A program made the position numbers and the translations under genes. A stretch of DNA of 64,000 bases from Carcharhinus amblyrhynchos. Taxonomy: Eukaryota. Of this stretch, positions 7,536-44,150 are shown piece by piece (positions within the stretch are counted from its first letter, which is position 1; the number at the start of each line of letters is the position of its first letter). Under the pieces are notes generated by a model, which was not told the origin of the DNA, made no database searches, and was given only the letters and a program-made list of their open reading frames with translations. Location: the NCBI GenBank assembly GCA_965287045.1, contig OZ336880.1, forward strand, positions 36,208,001 to 36,272,000. Reading direction: 5' to 3'.

Positions 7536-10290
7536 GGCAGGAATTTCCTGATGTTGGGTTGAGTTCTTGAAATAAAGTCAGTGGCAGAAGGGGAATCACA
7601 CTGTCTGTTGGTGGCAGAATCTGATTTTCCATTCATTTTGCGCACCATTCTCATTAAATGGGCTCTTTTCAAAATTAAGTTCCATCTTTGAGATGAAGTT
7701 AACAGCACATGGGGGTCTCATGTTTCCCAATAGCTTAAAGGTGACAGGCAACAGGCAAGGTTGTTCAGTTTTTGAATTTGAGCTGAAGTTTTCTTTTTCT
7801 CTAATTTAGCAGCACAGGGGAGGAGAGCAAGAGAAGCTGGATGGTCCATGAAGGGCAAAGCCATGGATGGAAGAGTAGGAGGTTGGAGATTTGTGGTGAC
7901 TGTGGGCTCAAATAATAGAGCAGAAAGGCAGTGTTTCAGTGGGGGAAGGAGGTATCCATAAAGAACCAGGTTCTGGCCCATGTTGCGGGGCCTGTCTTTG
8001 GTAAGCTGCTCCTGGGTGCGTAAGAGAGACAGCAGAACCACGCATGGCAGCTCAGCAGTCAGAAAAGAGAGATCAAGCTTGACTGAAAGAAGGTCCAGCT
8101 GCAGGGAAGGTAGGTCAAGGATCTCTGAAGGAGGGTTGAGGGTTATTGAGGGCATGTCAAGGATGGTGGAAGATGTTTCCATGATTACAGCAAGCAAGTT
8201 GAGGATGACGATGGAAGGGAGAGGGAGGGAGTTGGGAAGCCGAGGGTCCCTGACATTGTACCACGGATGATAGTTGGACGCTTGAGGATGATGGTGGTAG
8301 GGTAGAGTGAAGAGCGATGGGTGGAAGTTTGAGGGTACAGAGGGAGGTAAAAGCAGATAACTTGCAGCTGCCAAGCCACCTCATGCGATTCCACTGTTCC
8401 ATCTGCATTTGAGGCCCCAGGCCAAATCAAATGATTGCTATTGTGTGATATAGAACAAAGAACAACCCAGCACGGGAAACAGGCCCTTCGGCCCAACGAG
8501 CCCGCGCCGCCACATCACCCTACACCCATTCTACCCTGCGTGTCTACGAATAGAACCCCTAACTTAGTCAGATTCAGGGGAGAATAGTGTCAATTTGGTA
8601 AAACCAATCAGCCTAAGAGCACATCTTTGGGGTGTGGGAGGAAACCGGAGCGCCCGGAGGAAACCCATGCAACCACAGGGAGAATGCACAAACTCCCACA
8701 GACACAGGCCCAAATCCATGTATCTGCACAGCTAGCAGTGCTAGTCACCGAGCTGTTGCGGTGCCCGTCTACCGGTCCAGGATCAAGCACACACACCGAC
8801 ACGAAGTACTAGGCCACTCCCGGAACCTCCAAGAGCAGCCCACGCACGACCCACCGTGTGCATGCCCCTCGTTTGACACAAGGTGGACCTCCACCTGCGG
8901 AATAAAAAGACAAAAACGTTAATCTTACAAGTCTGCTTTTCCGGTGTCTCCCGAGGTTCTAACCTTATTTAATAGCCCCTACCATAACCCTCCATCCTCG
9001 TTTCACTCATGTGTCTGTCTAACTGAACCTTAAACGAGTCCAATGTTCCTGCCTCCACCACCCTACTCGGTAGTGCGTTCCATACCCCCACAACTCTCTG
9101 CGTAAAGAACCTTCCTCTCACGTCCAAATTATACCTCTCCCCCCTCACCCTTAAATCATGACCTCTCATATTTGTACCCAGTCTAGGGAGCAGTCTCTCA
9201 CTTATTGACTCTATCTATTCCCTTCAGTATCTTATATACCTCTATCATGTCCCCCCTCAATCTCCGTCTTTCCAAGGAGAATAGTCCCAGTTTCTCCAAC
9301 CTTTCCTTGTAACCCAGCCCCTCCATGCCAGGCAACATCCTGGTAAACCTCCTCTGCACCCTTTCCAGAGACTCCACGTCCTTCCGGTAGTAAGGTGACC
9401 AGAACTGGACGCAGTACTCCAAATGCGGTCTAACCAACGTTCTATACAACTGAAGCATTAGACGGCAGCTTTTATACTCTATACCCCTTCCTATAAAGGC
9501 TAGCATTCCATAAGCCTTCCTAACAACCTTCTCCACTTGTGACGCAACCTTCATGGATTTGTGAACCTGCACTCCCAGGTCCCTCTGTATTTCTATACTC
9601 CTAATCTGTCTACCTTTTATCACATAGCTCCTCTCTGCATTATTCCTTCCAAAATGCATCACCTTACATTTGTCAGGATTAAATTCCATCTGCCACCTAT
9701 CTGCCCAATGCACCAACCTATCTATATCCTGTTGTATCACCTGACAATCCAGTTCCGTACCCGCCAACCCTGCCATCTTGGTGTCATCAGCAAACTTGCT
9801 GATCACACCACCTACGCCCTCTTCCAAGTCATTTATGTATACTACAAAGAGGAGAGGTCCCAGTACTGAGCCCTGCGGCACACCACTGGTCACTGGCCTC
9901 CAGCCCGACAAGGTCCCCTCCACAACTACCCTCTGTCTCCTATTACCCAGCCAGTTCTCAATCCACCTAGCTACCTGACCTCGTATCCCATGCGCCTTAA
10001 CTGATGATAATGTGGCTCATGGTCTGGGTAGCATGCTTACATCTAAATCCATACTGCCACACAAAATTTGATGGAACTGATTGTTAATACCACTGACCAT
10101 GGTACTTAACTAACGTTTCCACTGCCTGGACCACCCTGTCAAGATCTAAGATGGTCTGCTACACACTGAATAACCTGGATATGATGAGGCCACGAACTGC
10201 ACAATGATCGGCTGAGGAAGTGGGGGAGGATAGGAAGAGGCAATTAATGCAGTCCCTTTCTGACTAGACTTCCCATGACTGACTCAACTG
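7536..10290 (+). mobile_element. Decayed PIF/Harbinger element interrupted by a young CR1 (8448-10001)
   Basis: GGCAGGAATTTCC-type terminus at ~7536. Transposase-like remnants: STVPSAFEAPGQIK*LLLCD (~8390-8449, cf. ...GWLLGD) and RFHCLD (~10115-10132, cf. RFRCLD). Confidence 0.5.
8448..10001 (-). mobile_element. Young 5'-truncated CR1 (HER1-like) LINE with a long, SINE-containing 3' UTR
   Basis: RT frame VKAHGIRG...[22 protein letters not shown]...SKFADDTK with a single frameshift near 9200 and a stop at 8969. The 3' UTR (8448-8968) ends in GGGCCGAAGGGCCTGTTTCCCGTGCTG...TTCTTTGTTCTAT. Confidence 0.95.
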
Positions 10291-17960: not shown

Positions 17961-18099
17961 TGGTAAACATCCTGGTAAACCTTTTCTGTACTCTCTCCAA
18001 AGCCTCCATGTCCTTCTGGTAGTGTGGTGACCAGAACTGGACACTGGAAGATCTCACCTTATTTGTTATCCAGTTTGCTGGACCTCAGTGGTGAATTCA

Positions 18100-19435
18100 G
18101 TGGCATCTTGAGGGGAACTGCTTGATAGAGCAGACGCAGCACGGTTTCGTTAAAGGGAAGTTGTGTCTGACAAATTTACTGGAGTTCTATGAGGATGTGT
18201 CTAGGGCGGTGGATAGAGGAGAGCCGGTGGATGTGGTCTTTCTTGATTTTCAGAAGGCGTTTGACAAGGTACCTCACAAGAGGTTATTGCAGAAGGTAAG
18301 GGGGCATGGAGTTGGGGGTAGGGTGTTAGCATGGATAGAGGACTGGTTGTCAAATAGGAGGCAGAGAGTGGGGGTCAATGGGTGCTATTCGGATTGGCGG
18401 ATGGTGACTAGTGGAGTGCCCCAGGGGTCGGTGCTGGGGCCTCAGCTATTTACCGTTTATATAGATGATCTGGAGGAGGGAACCGAGTGTAGGGTGTCGA
18501 AATTTGCTGATGACACCAAGATTGGTGGAAAGGCAAATTGTGCGGAGGGTGGTGAGAGTCTACAGAAGGATCTAGACAGGCTGGGCGAATGGGCCAGGAA
18601 ATGGCAGATGGAATTTAATGTTGGCAAGTGCGAGGTGGTCCACTTTGGTAGGAATAATGGTAGGAAGGATTATTACTTACGTGGAGAAAAACTGCAGCAG
18701 GCGACGGTGCAGAGGGACCTCGGGGTCCTTGTGCATGAGTCGCAAAAACCCAGCTTGCAGGTGCAGCAGGTGGTCAGGAAGGCGAATGGGATGCTGGCCT
18801 TCATCGCGAGGGGGATTGAATATAAAAGTAGGGAGGTCTTGCTGTGGCTGTATAGGGCATTGGTGAGGCCGCAGCTGGAGTACTGTGTGCAGTTTTGGGC
18901 GCCGTACTTACGCAAGGATATTTTGGCCTTGGAGGGAGTGCAGAGGAGGTTTACTAGGCTGATGCCGGAGTTGAGGGGGTTGAACTATGAGGAGAGGCTG
19001 AATAAATTAGGCTTGTACTTGTTAGAGTTTAGAAGAATGAGGGGAGATCTCATTGAGATGTATAAGATGATGAATGGGATGGATAGGATAGAGGTGGAGA
19101 GACTCTTCCTGCTCAGAAAGGATAGTAGGACTAGGGGGCACAGCCTCAAGATAAAGGGGGTGCGGTTTAGAATGGAGTTGAGGAGGAACTTCTTCACTCA
19201 AAGGGTGGTGAATCTCTGGAATTCTCTGTCCGTTGAAGTGGTGGAGGCTGCCTCGCTAAATATTTTTAAGACGCGGGTTGATGGATTTTTGATAAGCGAG
19301 GGGATTAAGGGTTATGGGGAGAGGGCGGGAATGTGGAACTGAGCCATGACAGATCAGCCATGATCTTATTGAATGGCAGGGCAGGCTCGAAGGGCTAGTT
19401 GGCCTACTCCTGCTCCTATTTCTTATGTTCTTATG
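18100..19435 (+). mobile_element. Young 5'-truncated CR1 subfamily B with uninterrupted RT C-terminal ORF (406 aa, 18122-19342)
   Basis: [27 protein letters not shown] and FADD motifs with no stops; TTCTTATG tail; 8-bp TSD TGAATTCA (18092-18099, 19434-19441). Confidence 0.95.
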
Positions 19436-33821: not shown

Positions 33822-35628
33822 GTTTTTGTATTTTTTTCATTTCAAAAATACACCTTATTCATAAAAAGACTCTCAAATAAATCATTGCAAAACAATATGT
33901 CCAAAAATTACAAACAGCGCAAAAAAAGGTCGTTTTTATAGTACTACATGATGCTTATTTACACAACATTACATTAGTTACATTTTAAAACTTAAAACTA
34001 TGTACGTACATCAGAGTTCACTGTGTGCTGTTATTTTTCAGATAAGCACACTGTTATGCAGGACGTTACCAGGCGCTCAGTTTGCCTCGCTTGTAAGTCT
34101 TCACACTGTGGCCTTTCCCCATTGTGCCTTTGCGGTGGCTGCCCCAAGTTTGAGCGGGTCCCTCAGCACGTAGTCCTGGACCTTGGAGTGTGCCAGTCTG
34201 CAGCACTCAGTTGAGGACAAATCTTTCAACTGGAAGATCAGCACGTTTCGGGCTGGCCAACGTGCATCCTTCACCGAATTGGTGGCTCTCCAGCAGCAGT
34301 TGATATTTGTCTCGGTGTGCATCCCTGGAAACAGCCCGTAGAGCACAGAGTCCTGCGTCACTGAGCTGCTCAGGATGAATCACGACAAATACCACTGCAT
34401 CTCACTCCAGACCTTCTTTGCAAAGGCACATTCCACAAGGAGGCGTGCGACCGTCTCATCACCCCCCCAGCCGCTTCGAGGGCAGCGTGTGGTGATGTTG
34501 AGACCTCGAGCATGCATAAAGGATCTGACGGGGAGTGCCTTTCTTATTACCAGCCAAGCCAGGTCTTGGTGTTGTTTGTGAGTTCTGGTAATGAGGCGTT
34601 CTGTCAGATGACACTGACAGTCTGCTCAGGGAACCATCCAACAGGATCCGCCATCTCTTTTTCTCTCAGGGCCTCAAGGACATTATATGTTGACCACTGC
34701 TTAATCGCCATGTGATCAAAAGTGTATTTGCGGAAAAATTTTTCCACGAAGGACAGGTGCTGCGATACGGTCCAACTACTTGGAGCGTTCTGTGGCAGTG
34801 TGGCCAGACCCATTCCTCCGCAACACTTGAGACAGGTAGAACCTCAAAAAGTAGTGGCACTTGCTGTTAGCATAGCAAGGATTACACGCAGCTTGATGCA
34901 GCCACACACAAAGGTAGCCATCAGGATGAGGGCAGCGTTGGAAATATTCTTCCCTCCCTTCTCTAGAGATTTGTGTATCACTTCCCTCCAGACACAATCC
35001 ATCTTTGATCTCCAGATAAATTTGAAGATGGCCTGAGTCACTGCTGCTGTGCAGGATTGGGGGATAGGCCACACCTATGCCATGTACAACAACATGGACA
35101 GTACTTCGCACCAGGTGACCAGGTTTTTTCCGGTGATAGAGGGAGCGTTGCTCCCACAAGCCCAATTTTTGCCTGGCTTTGGCGATGCACACTTCCCAGT
35201 TTTTGGCGCATGCCCCTGCCATTCCAAACCATATCCCCAGCACCTTAAGACAGCCTGCCCTGATGGTGAAGGGGACAAAGAATCTGTCAGTCCAGTTCCC
35301 AAAGAACGTATCCTCGTTCTTACCCCAGTTGACTTTGGCTCCCGAGGCCAGCTCGAACTGCTCATAGACTTGGGGGAGCTTGCGATTGGACAAGGGGTCC
35401 GAGTAGAAGACAGCCACGTCATCCATGTTCAGGGAGGATTTGACCTGTATGCCTCCACTGCGTGGTATTGTAGCTCCTTTGATGCCTAGGTTGCTTCTGA
35501 GAGCCTCAGCAAAGGGTTCAATGCAACATACAAGAAAGATGAGAGTGGGCAGCCCTTCCTGATTCCAGATCTGATCCCTATCTGATTTCCACCCATTGAT
35601 TGAAACTGCACTACTCTTGTCTGTGTAA
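33822..35628 (-). mobile_element. Tx1 (L1-group) LINE, 5'-truncated ORF2 plus 3' UTR and A-rich tail
   Basis: IRSGIRKGCPLS, MDDVAVF, FELASGAKVNWGK, LKVLGIWFG and C-terminal ...LKLGAATAKAQWGKATV*; T-rich run on the + strand at ~33822-33838. Confidence 0.9.
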
Positions 35629-37939: not shown

Positions 37940-38233
37940 TTAGTTTAGTTTACTTATTAGTGTCACAAGTAGGCTTATATTAACATTGCAATGAAGTTAC
38001 TGTGAAAATCCCCTCAGTGTTCGGGTACACTGAGAGAGAAATTAGCATGGCCAATGCACCTAACCAACACGTCTTTCGCACTGAGGGAGGAAACTGGAGT
38101 AGGAACTCCAGAGGAAACCCATGCAGACACGCGGCGAACATGCAGACTCCATACAGACAGTGACCCAAGCCGGAAATTGAACCAGGTCCCTGGTGCTGTG
38201 AGCAGCGGCGCTAACCACTCTGGCATCATGCCG
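37940..38233 (-). mobile_element. V-SINE subfamily B
   Basis: TTATTAGTGTCACAAGTAGGCTTA...GAAGTTACTGTGAAAATCCC tail (reverse) and tRNA head. Confidence 0.9.
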
Positions 38234-40317
38234 TACTTCCTCATGTTTCAAAAGCAATTCATAAAATTGAAAGTAAAGTTGCAGATAAGTTTTCCAAATT
38301 TAAACTTAAACAAAATGGTGATTTTACTTGTGAAATGCTATGAAACAAAATGAGAGAGCCATTACTGAACTTGAAATTAATTGTGTGCTTTTTCTTGGTA
38401 AATGAGTATCTCAGCTTGAATCTCGAGGGTTCAAGTTATTGAGACTTGATTGCCTCAATGGATGGTTTTCATTGACTCTTAGCCAAGCAGTAGTAGAACA
38501 TATTTCTGTGGGATAAGCATTCAAAGATTTGATCATAAACAGCATCTGCTATTTTCAATGGCTGTTCAAATCACAATAAATCCACATTGGACTTTGTTCA
38601 CATGTGTTGCGCACCATGTCAGAGCTGTGTGGGAGAAATCAGTTCCAACAAATTGATTTATTGACAAGGGTATAAAAGATCTTTTTGATGGGCTCTGTTT
38701 TTCTTTCATGACACAAAGCACCTTGACTTGCTTGCATGAAGGTTTAGCCGAACCTATAAGGCACTACTGAGTTTGCCTTATCTTGTAAGAGTTAGAATCT
38801 TGATGAAGATATCGGCAAGTTATTCCCCATTGACATAATTAATGGCTTTTCTTATTTTTCAAACATTGAGCTGGACCTTACATTCATATATCATTATTCA
38901 GATGCTGATGCACACTTTACCTTACTTTATCTCATTCAAAAAAAATGCCCCAGAGAAACTGATTTCCTTGGAAATGGAATTAACGAGATATTTGCTTTTC
39001 TTCCGACAGCTGAAACTTGTGCAGATATTTAAGGCAAACTGATATCAGCATCGGAAATTGGAAATGCTGTCAGTAAGAGATTGCCACTTAGTCACATGAA
39101 ATTTAGTTTTTTGTAGATTATTAGTTGGAGTACCTCAATTTTTCTTTTATTCATCATGCAATTAAATGCCACTCTATTATTCTGGTTGATTTTTGCTGAC
39201 CATGTTCAGAATTGATTTACCGAACAGCACTAGGGCCTAAAATACACAGTTACCAAAACTATGCTTAGTGTTTCACACCACAGATGCTCGTAATTAAACA
39301 TGAAACTCCATGTCAGAAGATACCAACATCGCATTTATTCACACTTCAATGATTTGGATGAGCTTGCTTGGTTTCCTGCAACAGATTTTGTCCTTTAGCT
39401 GGTGGAGCTGAAAATATTTTCCAAGTTGCAACTTGAAGAACCGGAGGCATTTGGAAAAAAAATCTCACTCCAATTTACTTTTCCATCCGTCAAAAGTGTT
39501 ACACGAACTTTAGACAAAGGAAATGAATCCTTAAAAAAAAGGAATAAAAATGCAGAGGCCTGAAGCCAATCAGTCAGGATAATTGGAGTAGGCCACAGAG
39601 GAGGCAACACAGTAAATAAGCAGAAAAGGAGACCATGAGGTGGAATGATGAACAGGCCAATGTTCCTTGCATCCTGAGGGACAATGCTTTGTTTTTCATC
39701 GGTCCAGAGCTGGCAAATAACTCACTCCAGATTAGTTGGCAATGGTATTGGCTCAGGAGTAAATATTTCATCGAAAGGAAAAAGTATTCATGGCATTCCA
39801 AAGTTGAATGCAGCAATCTGTACTTAAATAAAACCCATGCCCCCCCCCACCACCCTCCTCACTGCTTCTCAATGCAATCTTGGATCAGTGGAGATTGTTC
39901 ACAGATGCTGTCAATATTGTGTGATTGATTGGCAGCCAGTGTAGTTTTGGAGGGACGAATGATGTTTCCTCCTCTTCTTGCAGCCCAGCAGAGAGTTGAC
40001 AAAACTCACAAAACTGAAGATGGTAGATTTCAGTGCGAGTCAGTCATGCGACTCAAAGCTGAAACTGTTTGGCTGGGAAGGAAAGCTTCAAACGTACACT
40101 GCCCTGAAACATGTATATTTTCACAAAACAAATCCAGTTTCTATTAACATGTCTTTATTTATTTTTTTCCTCCTGTCTTCCTGAGTACTGGTCATTAACG
40201 TTAATGGTTTTGTCTTCAATCGAGGAAGGGGCAGTTTGACCTTAACAGCATCCAAATGGATGCTGTATCTAGGGATACTTAATTCAATTTATCTTGTGGT
40301 CTGTTGTCATAATGTGG

Positions 40318-41308
40318 GGGTGGATTTATCCACCTCCACCCCTGCTGTTCCAATCAATAACTGAAAAGCCCCCTTTATATGTGACTTGTGAGGTTTTTAC
40401 ACAGGTTCTGCTTTGTTTTCTTCTGCAGTTCGCCCGACTGTTTTGGCCTCTTGGCTAAGATCAAGTGTCGTTTTTGATCCTGCATCTGGTCTTGGCCAAT
40501 GAGGTAAAACCATGACTTCACCTGAAGGATCTTTTAAAAAGCCACCTGGGCCTATTGGCTAAGGTGAAGCTCAGATCGAGCCCAGGAGGGGATGTTATGC
40601 CCCATCCTGTCAGCTTGGATCCCCTTTGATCGAGCTCAAGGTGTGAGGAATGGCCTATCTTGTCAGCTTGGATCTGTTCTGAATTGGATTTTGATTAGGA
40701 ATAAAGTACCAAAAGGTATAAAAAAAAATTGTTTGCTAAAGGCTGGCGTTCATCAGGAGTGAATTATAATGACCTGTGAGCATTTAAGCATTTACAGGAG
40801 AAAAAAGGTAACTGTTTTTTGGTTCTGAATTTAAAACTGTAACTTGGCAGGAATGCAGCAGACCAGCCCCCACCAACAAATATTGGATCCTCTCCCACAC
40901 CACAAGTACGGCATGCCCCATCCCCCCACCCCCAGCACACACATATACACACACACAATGAGGCTTCCCAGAGGGCCCACCACTGCCAGAGGATACTATC
41001 CAGCAATGTCCCTCTCTACCTAGGGGCTACACTTACCCTGGGATCCCTGGCAAGTTGCCCTCGACTGAAAGTTATTAAAAATTTGTAAACGATATTCCGT
41101 TGGGGGTGGGGGGGCACATATTGCAGGGGTGTCCTATAATGACATTTAAATTAATGCTTATTGAAGGATGGTAACCTTGTAACATCGCGGGCAAGGGTAA
41201 ATGACAAAAGCAAGATCTCAACAGCGGGAATCTTGTTTCCTGATTTTCGCAAGATTATGGGCCCGCATCGCTGTTTATGCTCATGGCTAACACAACTCGA
41301 AATCACCC
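40318..41308. mobile_element. Probable decayed Harbinger-type MITE hosting the U2-like module
   Basis: Weak termini GGGTGGATTT / GAAATCACCC. ATTTAAATTAATGC motif and GC-rich subterminal sequence resemble other MITEs in the window. Confidence 0.4.
40436..40728 (+). pseudogene. U2 snRNA-derived rearranged element with AATAAA and A-tail
   Basis: GGCCTCTTGGCTAAGATCAAGTGT (40445-40468) matches the U2 5' end at 23/24 nt. A second degenerate copy starts at 40549. There are two TC(C/T)TGTCAGCTTGGATC copies, an Sm-like GGATTTTG, AATAAA and an A9 run. Confidence 0.75.
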
Positions 41309-41324
41309 TCCCTAATGTAAATTC

Positions 41325-42878
41325 AGCCTGGGAGTCAGGATATACTCCAGAATACTGAGAGAGCCAAGGGACAAAATTGCTGGGCCTTGAGAGAAATCTT
41401 TGTACCCTCACTGGCTACAGGGCAGGTCCCAGAGGATTGGAGAATAGCCAATGTTGTTCCTTTGTTTAAGAAGGGTAGCAAGAGTAATCCAGGTATTTAC
41501 AGCCTTACATCAATGGTAAGGGAATTATTGGAGAGGATTCTTCAAGACATGATTTATTTCCAGTTGGAAATAAGTGGATGTATTAGTGAGAGGCAACATG
41601 ATTTTGAGAAGGGGAGGTTGTGTCTCACGAACTTGATCGAGTTTTTCAAAGAAGTGATGAAGATGACTGCTGAGGGTGGGGCAGTGGATGTTGTCTACGT
41701 GGACTTCAGTAAGGCCTTTGACAAGGTCCCTCATGGCAGACTGGTGCAGAAGATAAAGTCGCATGGGATCAGAGGTGAGTTGGCAAGGTAGATACAAAAC
41801 TGGCTTGGTCAAAAAAGACAGAGGATAGCAGTGGAAGGATGTGTTTCTGAATGGAGGGCTTGACAATGATATTCCTCAGGGATTAGTGCTGGGACCTTTG
41901 CTGTTTGTAATATATATAAATGATTTGGAGCAAAATGTAACTGGATTGATTAGTAAGTTCGCTGATGGCACAAATGTTGGTGGATTTGCGGATGGTAATG
42001 AGGACCATCAGAAGATACAGCTGGATATAGATCAGTTGGAGGCTTGGGCGGAGAGATGGCAGATGGAGTTTAATCCAGACAAATGTGAGGCAATGCATTT
42101 TGGAAGGTCTAATACAGATAGAAAATATACATTAAATGGCAGAACCCTTAGGAGTATTGATAGGCAAAGGGATCTGGGTGTACAGGTACACAGGTCATTG
42201 AAAGTGGCAATGCAGGTGGAGAAGGTAGTCAATAATGCATATGGTATGCTTGCCTTCGTCGGCTAGGGTATTGAGTTTAAAAATTGGTAAGTCATGTTGC
42301 AGTTTTATAGAACCTTAATTAGGCGGCACTTGGAATATAGTGTTCAATTCTAGTCGCCACACTACCAGAAGGATGTGATGGCTTTGGAGATGGCACACAC
42401 AGATTTACCAGGATGTTGACTGGTACGGAGGGCATTAGCTATGAGGAGAGATTGGAGAAACTTGGTTTGTTCTCACTGGAATGACAGAGGTTGAGGGGCA
42501 ATCTGATAGAAGTCTATAAGATTATGAGAAACATGTACAGAGTGGATAGACAGAAGCTTTTTCCAAAATGGAAGAGTCAGTTACCAAAGGGCATAGGTTT
42601 AAGGTGCAAGGGGCATTGTTTAAAGGAGATATACGAGGCAGCTTTTTTACACAGAGAATTGGGTGCCTGGGACTCGTTGCCAGGGGAGGTAGTGGAAGTG
42701 GATACAGTAGTGATTTTTAAGGGGCATCTTGACAAGTACATGAATAGGATGAGAGTAGAGGGATATGCTCCCTGGAAAGATAGGGGGTTTTAGTTAAGTC
42801 GGGCAGCATGGTCAGTGCATGCTTCAAGGGCTGAACGGCCTGTTCCTGTGCTGTAATTTTCTTTGTTCTTTGTTCTTA
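41325..42878 (+). mobile_element. CR1 LINE ORF2 with 3' UTR
   Basis: [50 protein letters not shown] and WQMEFNPDKCE; (TTCTTTG)n tail. Confidence 0.95.
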
Positions 42879-43864
42879 TAACCCGTTGGGTTCAAAGCAG
42901 TGTGAATTTTATCAGGCTCAGTCCTTTATCCTGACTCTAAAAATACAATCACTGGATTTTATAAAACACCCCAGCAAGATGATAGCTCAATTTTTAATGT
43001 ATTTCAAAAATAGACTGTGTTTGGCAGGTTGAATGTGCCTGCATAAAATTCAGGTTCTAAGTACGAGGAGGAAAGTTGATAGATTTTTGACAGTGGAACA
43101 CACAAACATTGAAAAATGTGGAAGCCAAGTGTCTGCTCACAGAATGGAAGATTATTTTCCCTACAATTTCTACCATTGTCATGATAGCAGCTTAAAGTGG
43201 GCTATGGAGTTCAGCTAAATCTGTTCAGCCCAACTCTGGGAGATTGAAATGTTCCAGTGTAACCTTTAACCCACCTCTTCAATCCATTAAACAGAACTGT
43301 TTTATCACCCCAGCCTCCTCACAAGTTTCTTTTAGCTCTAGTCTAAAACTCAAATGCAAATTTTAATATTACAAGTTATTCCATCATTAATGGTTCTGAG
43401 GCTTGAATTACGCGAACAAAAGCCTGGTATACGCGTAAGCTCGCCACATTATGAACTCGCCTAAATATCTCAAGTTGGTTTGTTAGTGTAGCTATTGACA
43501 CAGTCAGAAAGTGCTGCCCAATCACAGATACATATCTAGCTGGAGATGTTTTGATGTGGGTTTCACAAGAGTGGGCTGGGTGAGTGCAGGTTGTACTCTG
43601 CCTGTTATAGGCAACAAAAGGAACATGTTGTTTGATTCAATCAGCCAATCACTGGGACGGATGGTCTACATACCTGACATTGTATTGGCTCTGAAATTCT
43701 AACATGGGATTTCTCAATTGTGTAATAGGCGCAATTTTTTTTGGGCTAATGACAGTATTCTGTTAGCAGAAAATACCACTTATATAGAAACAGATTCTGC
43801 AAGCTGTTTCACACTGCTACAATGCGGTGGCTATGCAAGTGGTATTTAAATGTACTCAACGATG

Positions 43865-44150
43865 ATGTATTCACAACCCTCTGGTGTAGAAAATTCCAAA
43901 GATTCACAATCCTCTGAGTGATGAAATTTCTACTCATCTTAAATGATCAACCCCCATCCCATTTTCTCGATTCCCCAGCCAGAGTCTACCCTGTCTAGCA
44001 CCTTCACAATCCTGCATTTTCCAATCAGATTATCATGTAAACTACAGAGAATATGAGGCCAATTTACTTAGCCACTCATCATAAGTCAACTCTTTCATTC
44101 CAGGAAACAATCAAGTAAATCTTCACTATCTTACATCCAAGGCAAATGTA
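43865..44150 (-). mobile_element. Old CR1 3' fragment
   Basis: AATTCCAAAGATTCACAATCCTCTGAGTG (reverse of TQRIVNLWN). Confidence 0.7.

Follow-up and report, generated by a model that had tools for sequence, protein, structure and literature searches.

The insert at positions 40440 to 40728 of the window, the 64,000-nucleotide stretch of the Carcharhinus amblyrhynchos genome that we analyzed, is a copy of a dispersed, A-tailed, TSD-flanked retroposon family of the SINEU type. The family is built from pieces of U2 snRNA, and it has probably been copied and pasted by the genome's own U2-targeting LINE of the Tx1 clade (Keno type). By fold prediction, a hairpin locks away the U2 head of the element. 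The case for this LINE as partner is best for one subfamily (B), and it likely extends by kinship to subfamily A, to which the window copy belongs. Within the family, the copy in the window is old and unremarkable. A first-pass annotation had suggested a U2-headed, SINEU-like family with a Tx1 or Keno-type LINE, and this suggestion is supported by the copies elsewhere in the genome, by their boundaries, A-tails, and TSDs, and by added heads and shared insertion points.

We mapped the parts of the window copy (Table 1) with the genome's own U2 gene, at locus L031, as the U2 reference. The motifs that had been listed earlier were found in their places: a 24-mer at 40445 to 40468, its second copy at 40549, a 17-mer at 40605 and again at 40658, an Sm-like 12-mer at 40682, an AATAAA (40700 to 40705), and a run of nine A's (40720 to 40728). 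Two outlines had to be redrawn. The head was said to stop at the branch-point motif, but the head of the family reaches U2 nt 45 to 47, and the C at 40469 is a private change of the window copy where the family majority has A. The motif described as repeated does occur twice, but the repeated unit is longer than claimed, about 55 bp, and its two versions are 77% alike in the majority sequence (E = 1e-8). The antisense arm is an addition to the earlier description.

Table 1. Parts of the window copy, and the separate LINE fragment, by position in the window
Feature	Positions	Strand	Remarks
Whole retroposon copy, subfamily A	40440..40728	+	90.8% identical to the majority sequence of 30 copies; old; 5' end decayed
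U2 head 1	40440..40481	+	U2 nt ~6-47: stem-loop I and the region that recognizes the branch point; single change at 40469
Antisense arm, complementary to U2 nt 9-40	40476..40509	+	Predicted to form a long hairpin with head 1
Short hairpin, then T/A run; end of the left monomer	40515..40536	+	
U2 head 2, from stem-loop I (U2 nt 7-31); opens the right monomer	40545..40569	+	83% in the window copy, 92% in the majority sequence
Two tandem units of ~55 bp (40574-40629 and 40628-40682)	40574..40682	+	Related to the M body and, via M, to U2 nt ~31-62
Remnant of the U2 Sm-site region (U2 91-107)	40679..40694	+	Reaches significance in long variants but not by itself
Tail with AATAAA and A9	40699..40728	+	GAATAAAGTA (40699-40708) is common to the 3' end of the Keno-like LINE
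Older Tx1/Keno-type LINE fragment, separate from the insert	33840..35627	-	85% to the intact copy in L116

The two heads of the window copy are recognizable as U2 at the nucleotide level. In BLAST comparisons with the L031 U2, window positions 40445 to 40479 matched U2 nt 11 to 45 (86%, E = 2e-8), and 40546 to 40569 matched nt 8 to 31 (83%, E = 4e-4); the subfamily A majority sequence matched nt 6 to 47 (90%, E = 1e-12). The Rfam U2 model, which had been proposed as a check, scored the window copy below its cut-off (22 bits, E = 0.24) but gave 44 to 48 bits for sister copies. The U2 resemblances claimed for the 3' part were not significant when the window copy was taken by itself (P = 0.43), and the same was true of the short majority sequence (P = 0.12), but they did hold in longer variants of A and in the monomeric form M described below. 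A piece of stem-loop IIb that precedes the Sm remnant is deleted in the window variant and kept in the copies at L023, L027, L028, and L030. T runs occur within the head and at 40529 to 40536, as internal oligo-T. An Rfam scan of window positions 38000 to 44000 returned no tRNA, 5S, or 7SL family at E ≤ 10, and no significant TSD was found at the window copy, the best candidate having P = 0.13.

The surroundings of the insert hold features of their own. A polypyrimidine run ending in CAG lies just upstream of the element (40405 to 40429), and with the AATAAA at 40700 it could, judging by sequence, make the window copy an alternative last exon. Farther upstream there is a possible short coding exon on the + strand (39930 to 40150), conserved at about 95 to 97% in related organisms; no convincing Pfam match was obtained for the candidate exon near 39930 to 40180. 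Fragments resembling the reverse transcriptases of common LINEs lie at 41321 to 42500, 9198 to 10016, and 18095 to 19342, with an RVT_1 match for 41321 to 41791. We take these fragments to be CR1-like.

The insert is a member of a large family rather than a single-copy sequence. A genome search placed related copies at 40 other sites with 74 to 88% identity, counting the best 40 scored of 1,403 candidates; here and in the samples that follow, copies were chosen as best BLAST matches, so identities are biased high. An exact 14-mer from the body matched the genome 5,528 times, compared to 2 times for the reversed control. Four members fell within 560 kb of arbitrarily placed stretches, which corresponds to about 21,000 copies genome-wide (95% range, 5,700 to 53,000). 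Aligned A copies begin abruptly at the U2 head and finish in a 3' A-tail. Moreover, TSDs with P < 0.05 flanked 8 of 30 A copies, where 1.5 were expected and 870 cross pairs served as the background, although the window copy was not among the eight. Young B copies carried exact TSDs of at least 6 bp (6 to 22 bp) in 11 of 29 cases, after one of 30 was dropped with an unparsed tail, versus 1.1% of 812 cross pairs.

The flanks of these copies also bear on the first-pass proposal that the insert is a U2-like RNA carried as cargo within a Harbinger MITE spanning 40318 to 41308, an explanation to which we now attach practically no weight. In its favor, 41190 to 41310 is weakly repeated in the genome (71 to 85%). 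Against it, none of 29 other loci that we fetched shared either flank of the window copy, and the family's copies have A-tails and TSDs of their own rather than a common TIR element. The score of the putative TIR was reached by 332 of 1,000 shuffles, and none of the 19 other loci that matched the right part of the supposed element matched the left part. Flanks, TIR, the unlinked right and left parts, and the copies' own TSDs led us to reject MITE cargo for the copies sampled. The impression of a MITE likely came from 41190 to 41310 together with 40965 to 41075, both of which are old, weakly repeated sequence found elsewhere at 71 to 85%.

Insertion of the window copy is old. The family was present in all eight sequencing runs of this and related organisms, and in six of them (organisms A, B, C, F, and G and sample S2) a contig passed from the window flank into the element, so that the orthologous site is filled. 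None of the eight runs yielded an empty orthologous site. Among the 30 A copies, an all-against-all comparison of flanks showed no common target family, and 6 adjoined another family member. Some loci hold compound arrangements. In L014:600-2020, five members stand head to tail (B-like, a further variant, A, and M). At L023 (oriented 1340-1800), a single TSD apparently encloses an A copy together with a B-like copy that is truncated, and an old Tx1 fragment comes next. At L285:1797-1870, an older B copy comes after a young one and picks up again at about U2 nt 38, where the LINE inserts; it looks as though the young copy had gone into the older head.

The family comes in three forms of 225 to 320 nt, a monomer (M) and two dimers (A and B). 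A copies, about 294 nt long and 88 to 93% identical to their own majority sequence, share the layout of the window copy: head 1, arm, short hairpin with T/A run, head 2, the two 55-bp units, Sm remnant, and tail. Most of B is alignable to A; the B head is identical to U2 nt 2 to 40 (100%), and the best 40 of 3,108 B candidates are 98 to 100% alike. M, of about 225 nt (3,996 candidates), consists of a fresh U2 head on a decayed U2, and its colinearity with the U2 of this genome reaches about nt 169 (for the 3' resemblance, z was 7.3 in one copy and 9.6 in another). The first A unit aligns with the M body, and the four long A variants that we tested keep a 29-nt piece and match U2 beyond the head (z = 2.5 to 4.2 in all four). 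Because both M and the long A variants match U2 beyond the head, the body of the family is U2-derived, via intermediates. The history may have begun with a new U2 head joining a U2 retrocopy already in decay, which gave M; A and B would then have taken shape through internal duplication, 3' shortening, and a left monomer made of a U2 head and the arm.

The colinearity of M with U2, together with the retention of the window copy at its orthologous site in related organisms, might be read as the signature of a decayed processed U2 pseudogene or of a functional variant U2 snRNA. We find this reading very improbable. Copies on many contigs have in common their two heads, the antisense arm, the unit that is duplicated, and a tail of their own. 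Furthermore, the window copy has scattered changes at 9% of its positions, is without the 3' stem-loops of U2, and scores below the Rfam cut-off. The shared structure across contigs led us to reject a simple processed U2 pseudogene.

The U2 heads raise a separate question, whether the master RNA carries the head at all. The head could be added at each insertion, by a template switch onto U2 snRNA, to an element whose body is headless, so that every head is chimeric. Such template switches are described in PMC4494074, and several features of the young copies are in keeping with them: B heads match U2 nt 2 to 40 exactly and start at U2 nt 1 to 10 (at nt 1 in 8 copies), extra U2 heads occur at L287 and L232, and no master was found behind a U2 promoter. 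An extra head may even come from another snRNA, as the A copy at L005 has U1 nt 2 to 35 in front of its head, inside the apparent TSD (88%, E = 2e-6, by BLAST with the genome's own U1); Rfam gave no U1 match on L005. Against addition at each insertion, the A majority head has family-wide differences from U2 at nt 9, 38, 40, and 43. The head also meets the body at one junction in 27 of 30 A copies and in all 29 parsed B copies, which fits inheritance from a master. We therefore judge a head added afresh each time to be unlikely, and it is an alternative that alters the transcription step only and leaves the family assignment as it is. Our guess for that step is that the SINE would be transcribed by read-through from an snRNA-type promoter. 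A pattern search and the flanks of young B copies revealed no B copy behind the end of a U2 promoter.

The candidate partner is a LINE that lies intact in a 407-bp U2 gene array (L116:1784-7165; G000:C98). It has ORFs of 419 and 1,190 amino acids, with APE endonuclease, RT, zf-RVT, and CCHC domains, and it sits between U2 nt 1 to 57 and U2 nt 38 to 186, with a 20-bp duplication (U2 38 to 57). Junctions of its tail with U2 at nt 38/39 were found at 62 places by an exact-pattern search of the genome, and of 338 U2 heads counted in sampled arrays, 25 are interrupted. The 150 copies that were scored have 93 to 100% protein identity, and many of them are dispersed; 20 of the best 30 LINE 3' ends are outside U2 arrays. 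Four dispersed copies extend to the first position of the 5' UTR; all of them bear a U2 head (U2 1 to 56), doubled in two, and one of the four has a 24-bp TSD around head plus LINE. These observations indicate that the U2 head travels with the LINE. An older relative of this LINE, from the same Tx1/Keno-type group, lies in the window itself (Table 1).

Two further observations concern the LINE and its target genes. ORF1 of the LINE (L116:2132-3388) matches both RNA-binding domains of ZCCHC3 (PF23057 and PF23058) as well as a zinc knuckle, a sequence likeness that fits an origin of ZCCHC3 from, or kinship with, Tx1 ORF1. The U2 genes are of two types, about 87% alike and identical through nt 66; one is found in 10.5-kb repeats (L031 to L040; C45, C1098, and C1246) and the other in 407-bp tandem arrays (L041 to L060; C334 and C98).

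The evidence that links this LINE to the SINE comes mainly from where the two are inserted. We considered 54 dispersed young LINE 3' ends, made up of 20 ends (two of them duplicates) and 34 of a further 35, one having been dropped for lack of a tail. For nine of the 54, a B copy lay just downstream, with its U2 head no more than 18 bp away, in one case via an extra head piece, where chance would give 0.0003 for each end and about 0.02 for all 54. Of the other dispersed LINE ends, one was inside an M copy and one stood before an older U2-headed LINE. In three of the nine pairs (L156, L159, and L205), and also in L299 from the B sample, the spacer between LINE and SINE is the SINE's own TSD, which means that LINE and SINE used the same nick. 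Part of the spacer TSD also precedes the LINE in L156 and L159. In the remaining six of the nine pairs, the spacer was too short or was mismatched to the 3' flank of the SINE. We read the same-nick pairs as the work of one enzyme and often as one coupled event. Mechanistically, the SINE RNA would enter the LINE ribonucleoprotein and be copied by target-primed reverse transcription, and the LINE's own RNA would at times be copied at the same nick, leaving the order target-LINE-target-SINE-target.

A different account of these pairs is that the LINE later targeted U2-like heads that the SINE had scattered, while the SINE itself, above all subfamily A, was moved by another Tx1 or L1 LINE. LINE copies do lie at or in U2-like heads, near nt 1 in L140 and L223 and inside an M copy in L210. 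Yet in L156, L159, L205, and L299 the LINE is at the SINE's nick, 9 to 17 bp upstream of the head, and not at U2 nt 38, and all nine neighbors are of B type even though A and M provide more candidates (1,403 plus 3,996, against 3,108). The idea of another LINE also finds something to build on. By divergence, A predates the intact LINE (91% identity with its majority sequence, compared to 94 to 100% protein identity among the top LINE matches), although older Tx1 relatives (85%) exist that could have moved it. Only 1 of 30 A copies adjoins an old Tx1 piece. Likewise, the likeness of SINE and LINE tails is weak. The resemblance to a Tx1 LINE 3' end that was to be looked for is there as a short match in A (P = 0.011 by shuffling, in part a generic poly(A) signal), but it falls away in B (P = 0.13) and M (P = 0.21), and no long 3' end is common to SINE and LINE. 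Taking both sides together, we consider later targeting with another mover distinctly improbable and retain the U2-targeting Tx1 LINE as the likely partner.

The proposed partnership does not extend to the LINE's main target. No exact match placed a SINE at the LINE's site in U2 genes, as opposed to the 62 for the LINE, counts to be read with the caution that exact patterns miss variant tails and that the assembly may have collapsed U2 arrays. All 26 A-tailed insertions at the LINE site across 210 kb of array sequence were LINE and none was SINE. In this assembly, then, the SINE goes without the main target of the LINE.

SINE and LINE also have a predicted RNA structure in common. The window segment 40436 to 40515 has a predicted fold of -32.2 kcal/mol (z = -5.4), which was matched by 0 of 200 shuffles; in it, U2 nt 9 to 40, including the branch-point recognition sequence, pair with the arm, so that the U2 head is predicted to be locked in a hairpin. 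Of 27 A copies that retain the head intact, 19 had a predicted fold with z < -2, as did one B copy. Where arms depart from perfect complementarity, the changes favor G-U-compatible transitions (7:2 in A and 7:1 in B), counts that are not independent, the two arms being of common descent. Part of this bias might come from A-to-I editing of the hairpin, and an inverted duplication can give rise to a foldback without selection. The 5' UTR of the LINE is predicted to pair with U2 nt 9 to 40 at -33.9 kcal/mol, more strongly than any of 200 shuffles and any of 14 other LINE blocks. A U2 head is joined straight to this 5' UTR arm in the LINE copies L175, L191/192, and L198, one of which lies within a U2 array. 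When heads and arms were made to swap partners, the predicted energy was equal, at -33 to -34.5 kcal/mol. As to whether the left monomer might stem from the LINE 5' UTR, the two gave an alignment score that only 20 of 1,000 shuffles reached, but both arms are constrained by U2.

If such a lock forms, the arm would hide the branch-point and U6-pairing sequence of U2 from splicing. The same arm could anneal to free U2 snRNA or to the U2 head of the LINE, favoring template switches that renew the head. Taken to its full extent, the model would have an independently evolved, still active snRNA-derived SINE share a head/arm RNA lock with its partner LINE, its RNA docking on the LINE's U2-headed RNA or on U2 snRNA. 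We put this fuller model forward tentatively, as a possibility that structure prediction suggests and that we would not bet on.

The family works like SINEU, as judged by setting it beside the published description of the crocodilian families SINEU-1, -2, and -3. In the available part of PMC4494074, these families are crocodilian, with none found outside crocodilians; their transcription is left open, and their LINE partner is inferred only from a target family shared among old copies. Features in common with our family are U1 and U2 heads, repeated 5' additions of U1 and U2, partial duplications, a poly(A) tail, TSDs of about 10 bp, tandems around a TSD, internal oligo-T, a length under 500 bp, a Tx1 partner (here a likely one) able to bear snRNA heads, and copy numbers in the thousands. 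M resembles SINEU-3, a reshaped U2, and A and B resemble the complex forms of SINEU-1. Our family differs in belonging to another vertebrate lineage, and no transposon target shared among its flanks was seen, where the crocodilian families prefer Mariner-N4_AMi. In addition, the likely partner here is intact and still inserts in U2 genes, and the evidence for it consists of shared single insertion points. An anti-U2 foldback arm is found here in both SINE and LINE, whereas the available SINEU text has no such description.

The LINE and the U2 heads can be compared with known systems in the same manner. Keno is a U2-specific member of the Tx1 clade (PMC4494074 and PMC4640811), and by description the LINE fits it: the copy in L116 has two ORFs, an APE endonuclease and RT, and one fixed site in U2 genes. 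Unlike Keno as described there, many young copies here are dispersed outside U2 genes and carry U2 heads. In mammals, PMC4494074 summarizes snRNA/L1 chimeras and U2 pseudogenes that are truncated; these also have a 5' U2 fragment joined by template switch and flanked by TSDs. The mammalian chimeras are one-off events, whereas here one internal structure is common to many copies, many B copies being 98 to 100% alike.

No report of an snRNA-headed SINE in cartilaginous fish was found in the literature that we searched, a body that left most subscription journals and Repbase Reports outside reach, and the available portions of PMC5381603, PMC5753468, PMC5499810, and PMC4640811 mention none. Relative to the described SINEU, what is likely new is that one subfamily was active recently, that the probable partner is intact, and that SINE and LINE both have an anti-U2 arm; Repbase or Dfam may hold the family itself. 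SINEU-type elements would extend from crocodilians to a second vertebrate lineage. The docking model, if true, would supply a base-pairing route by which a SINE boards a LINE, instead of one based on the tail or the ribosome, and would account for both the same-nick tandems of LINE and SINE and the constant renewal of the U2 head. With near-identical young SINEs, an intact candidate LINE, and common insertion points in one genome, the identity of the partner and the role of the arm are directly testable.
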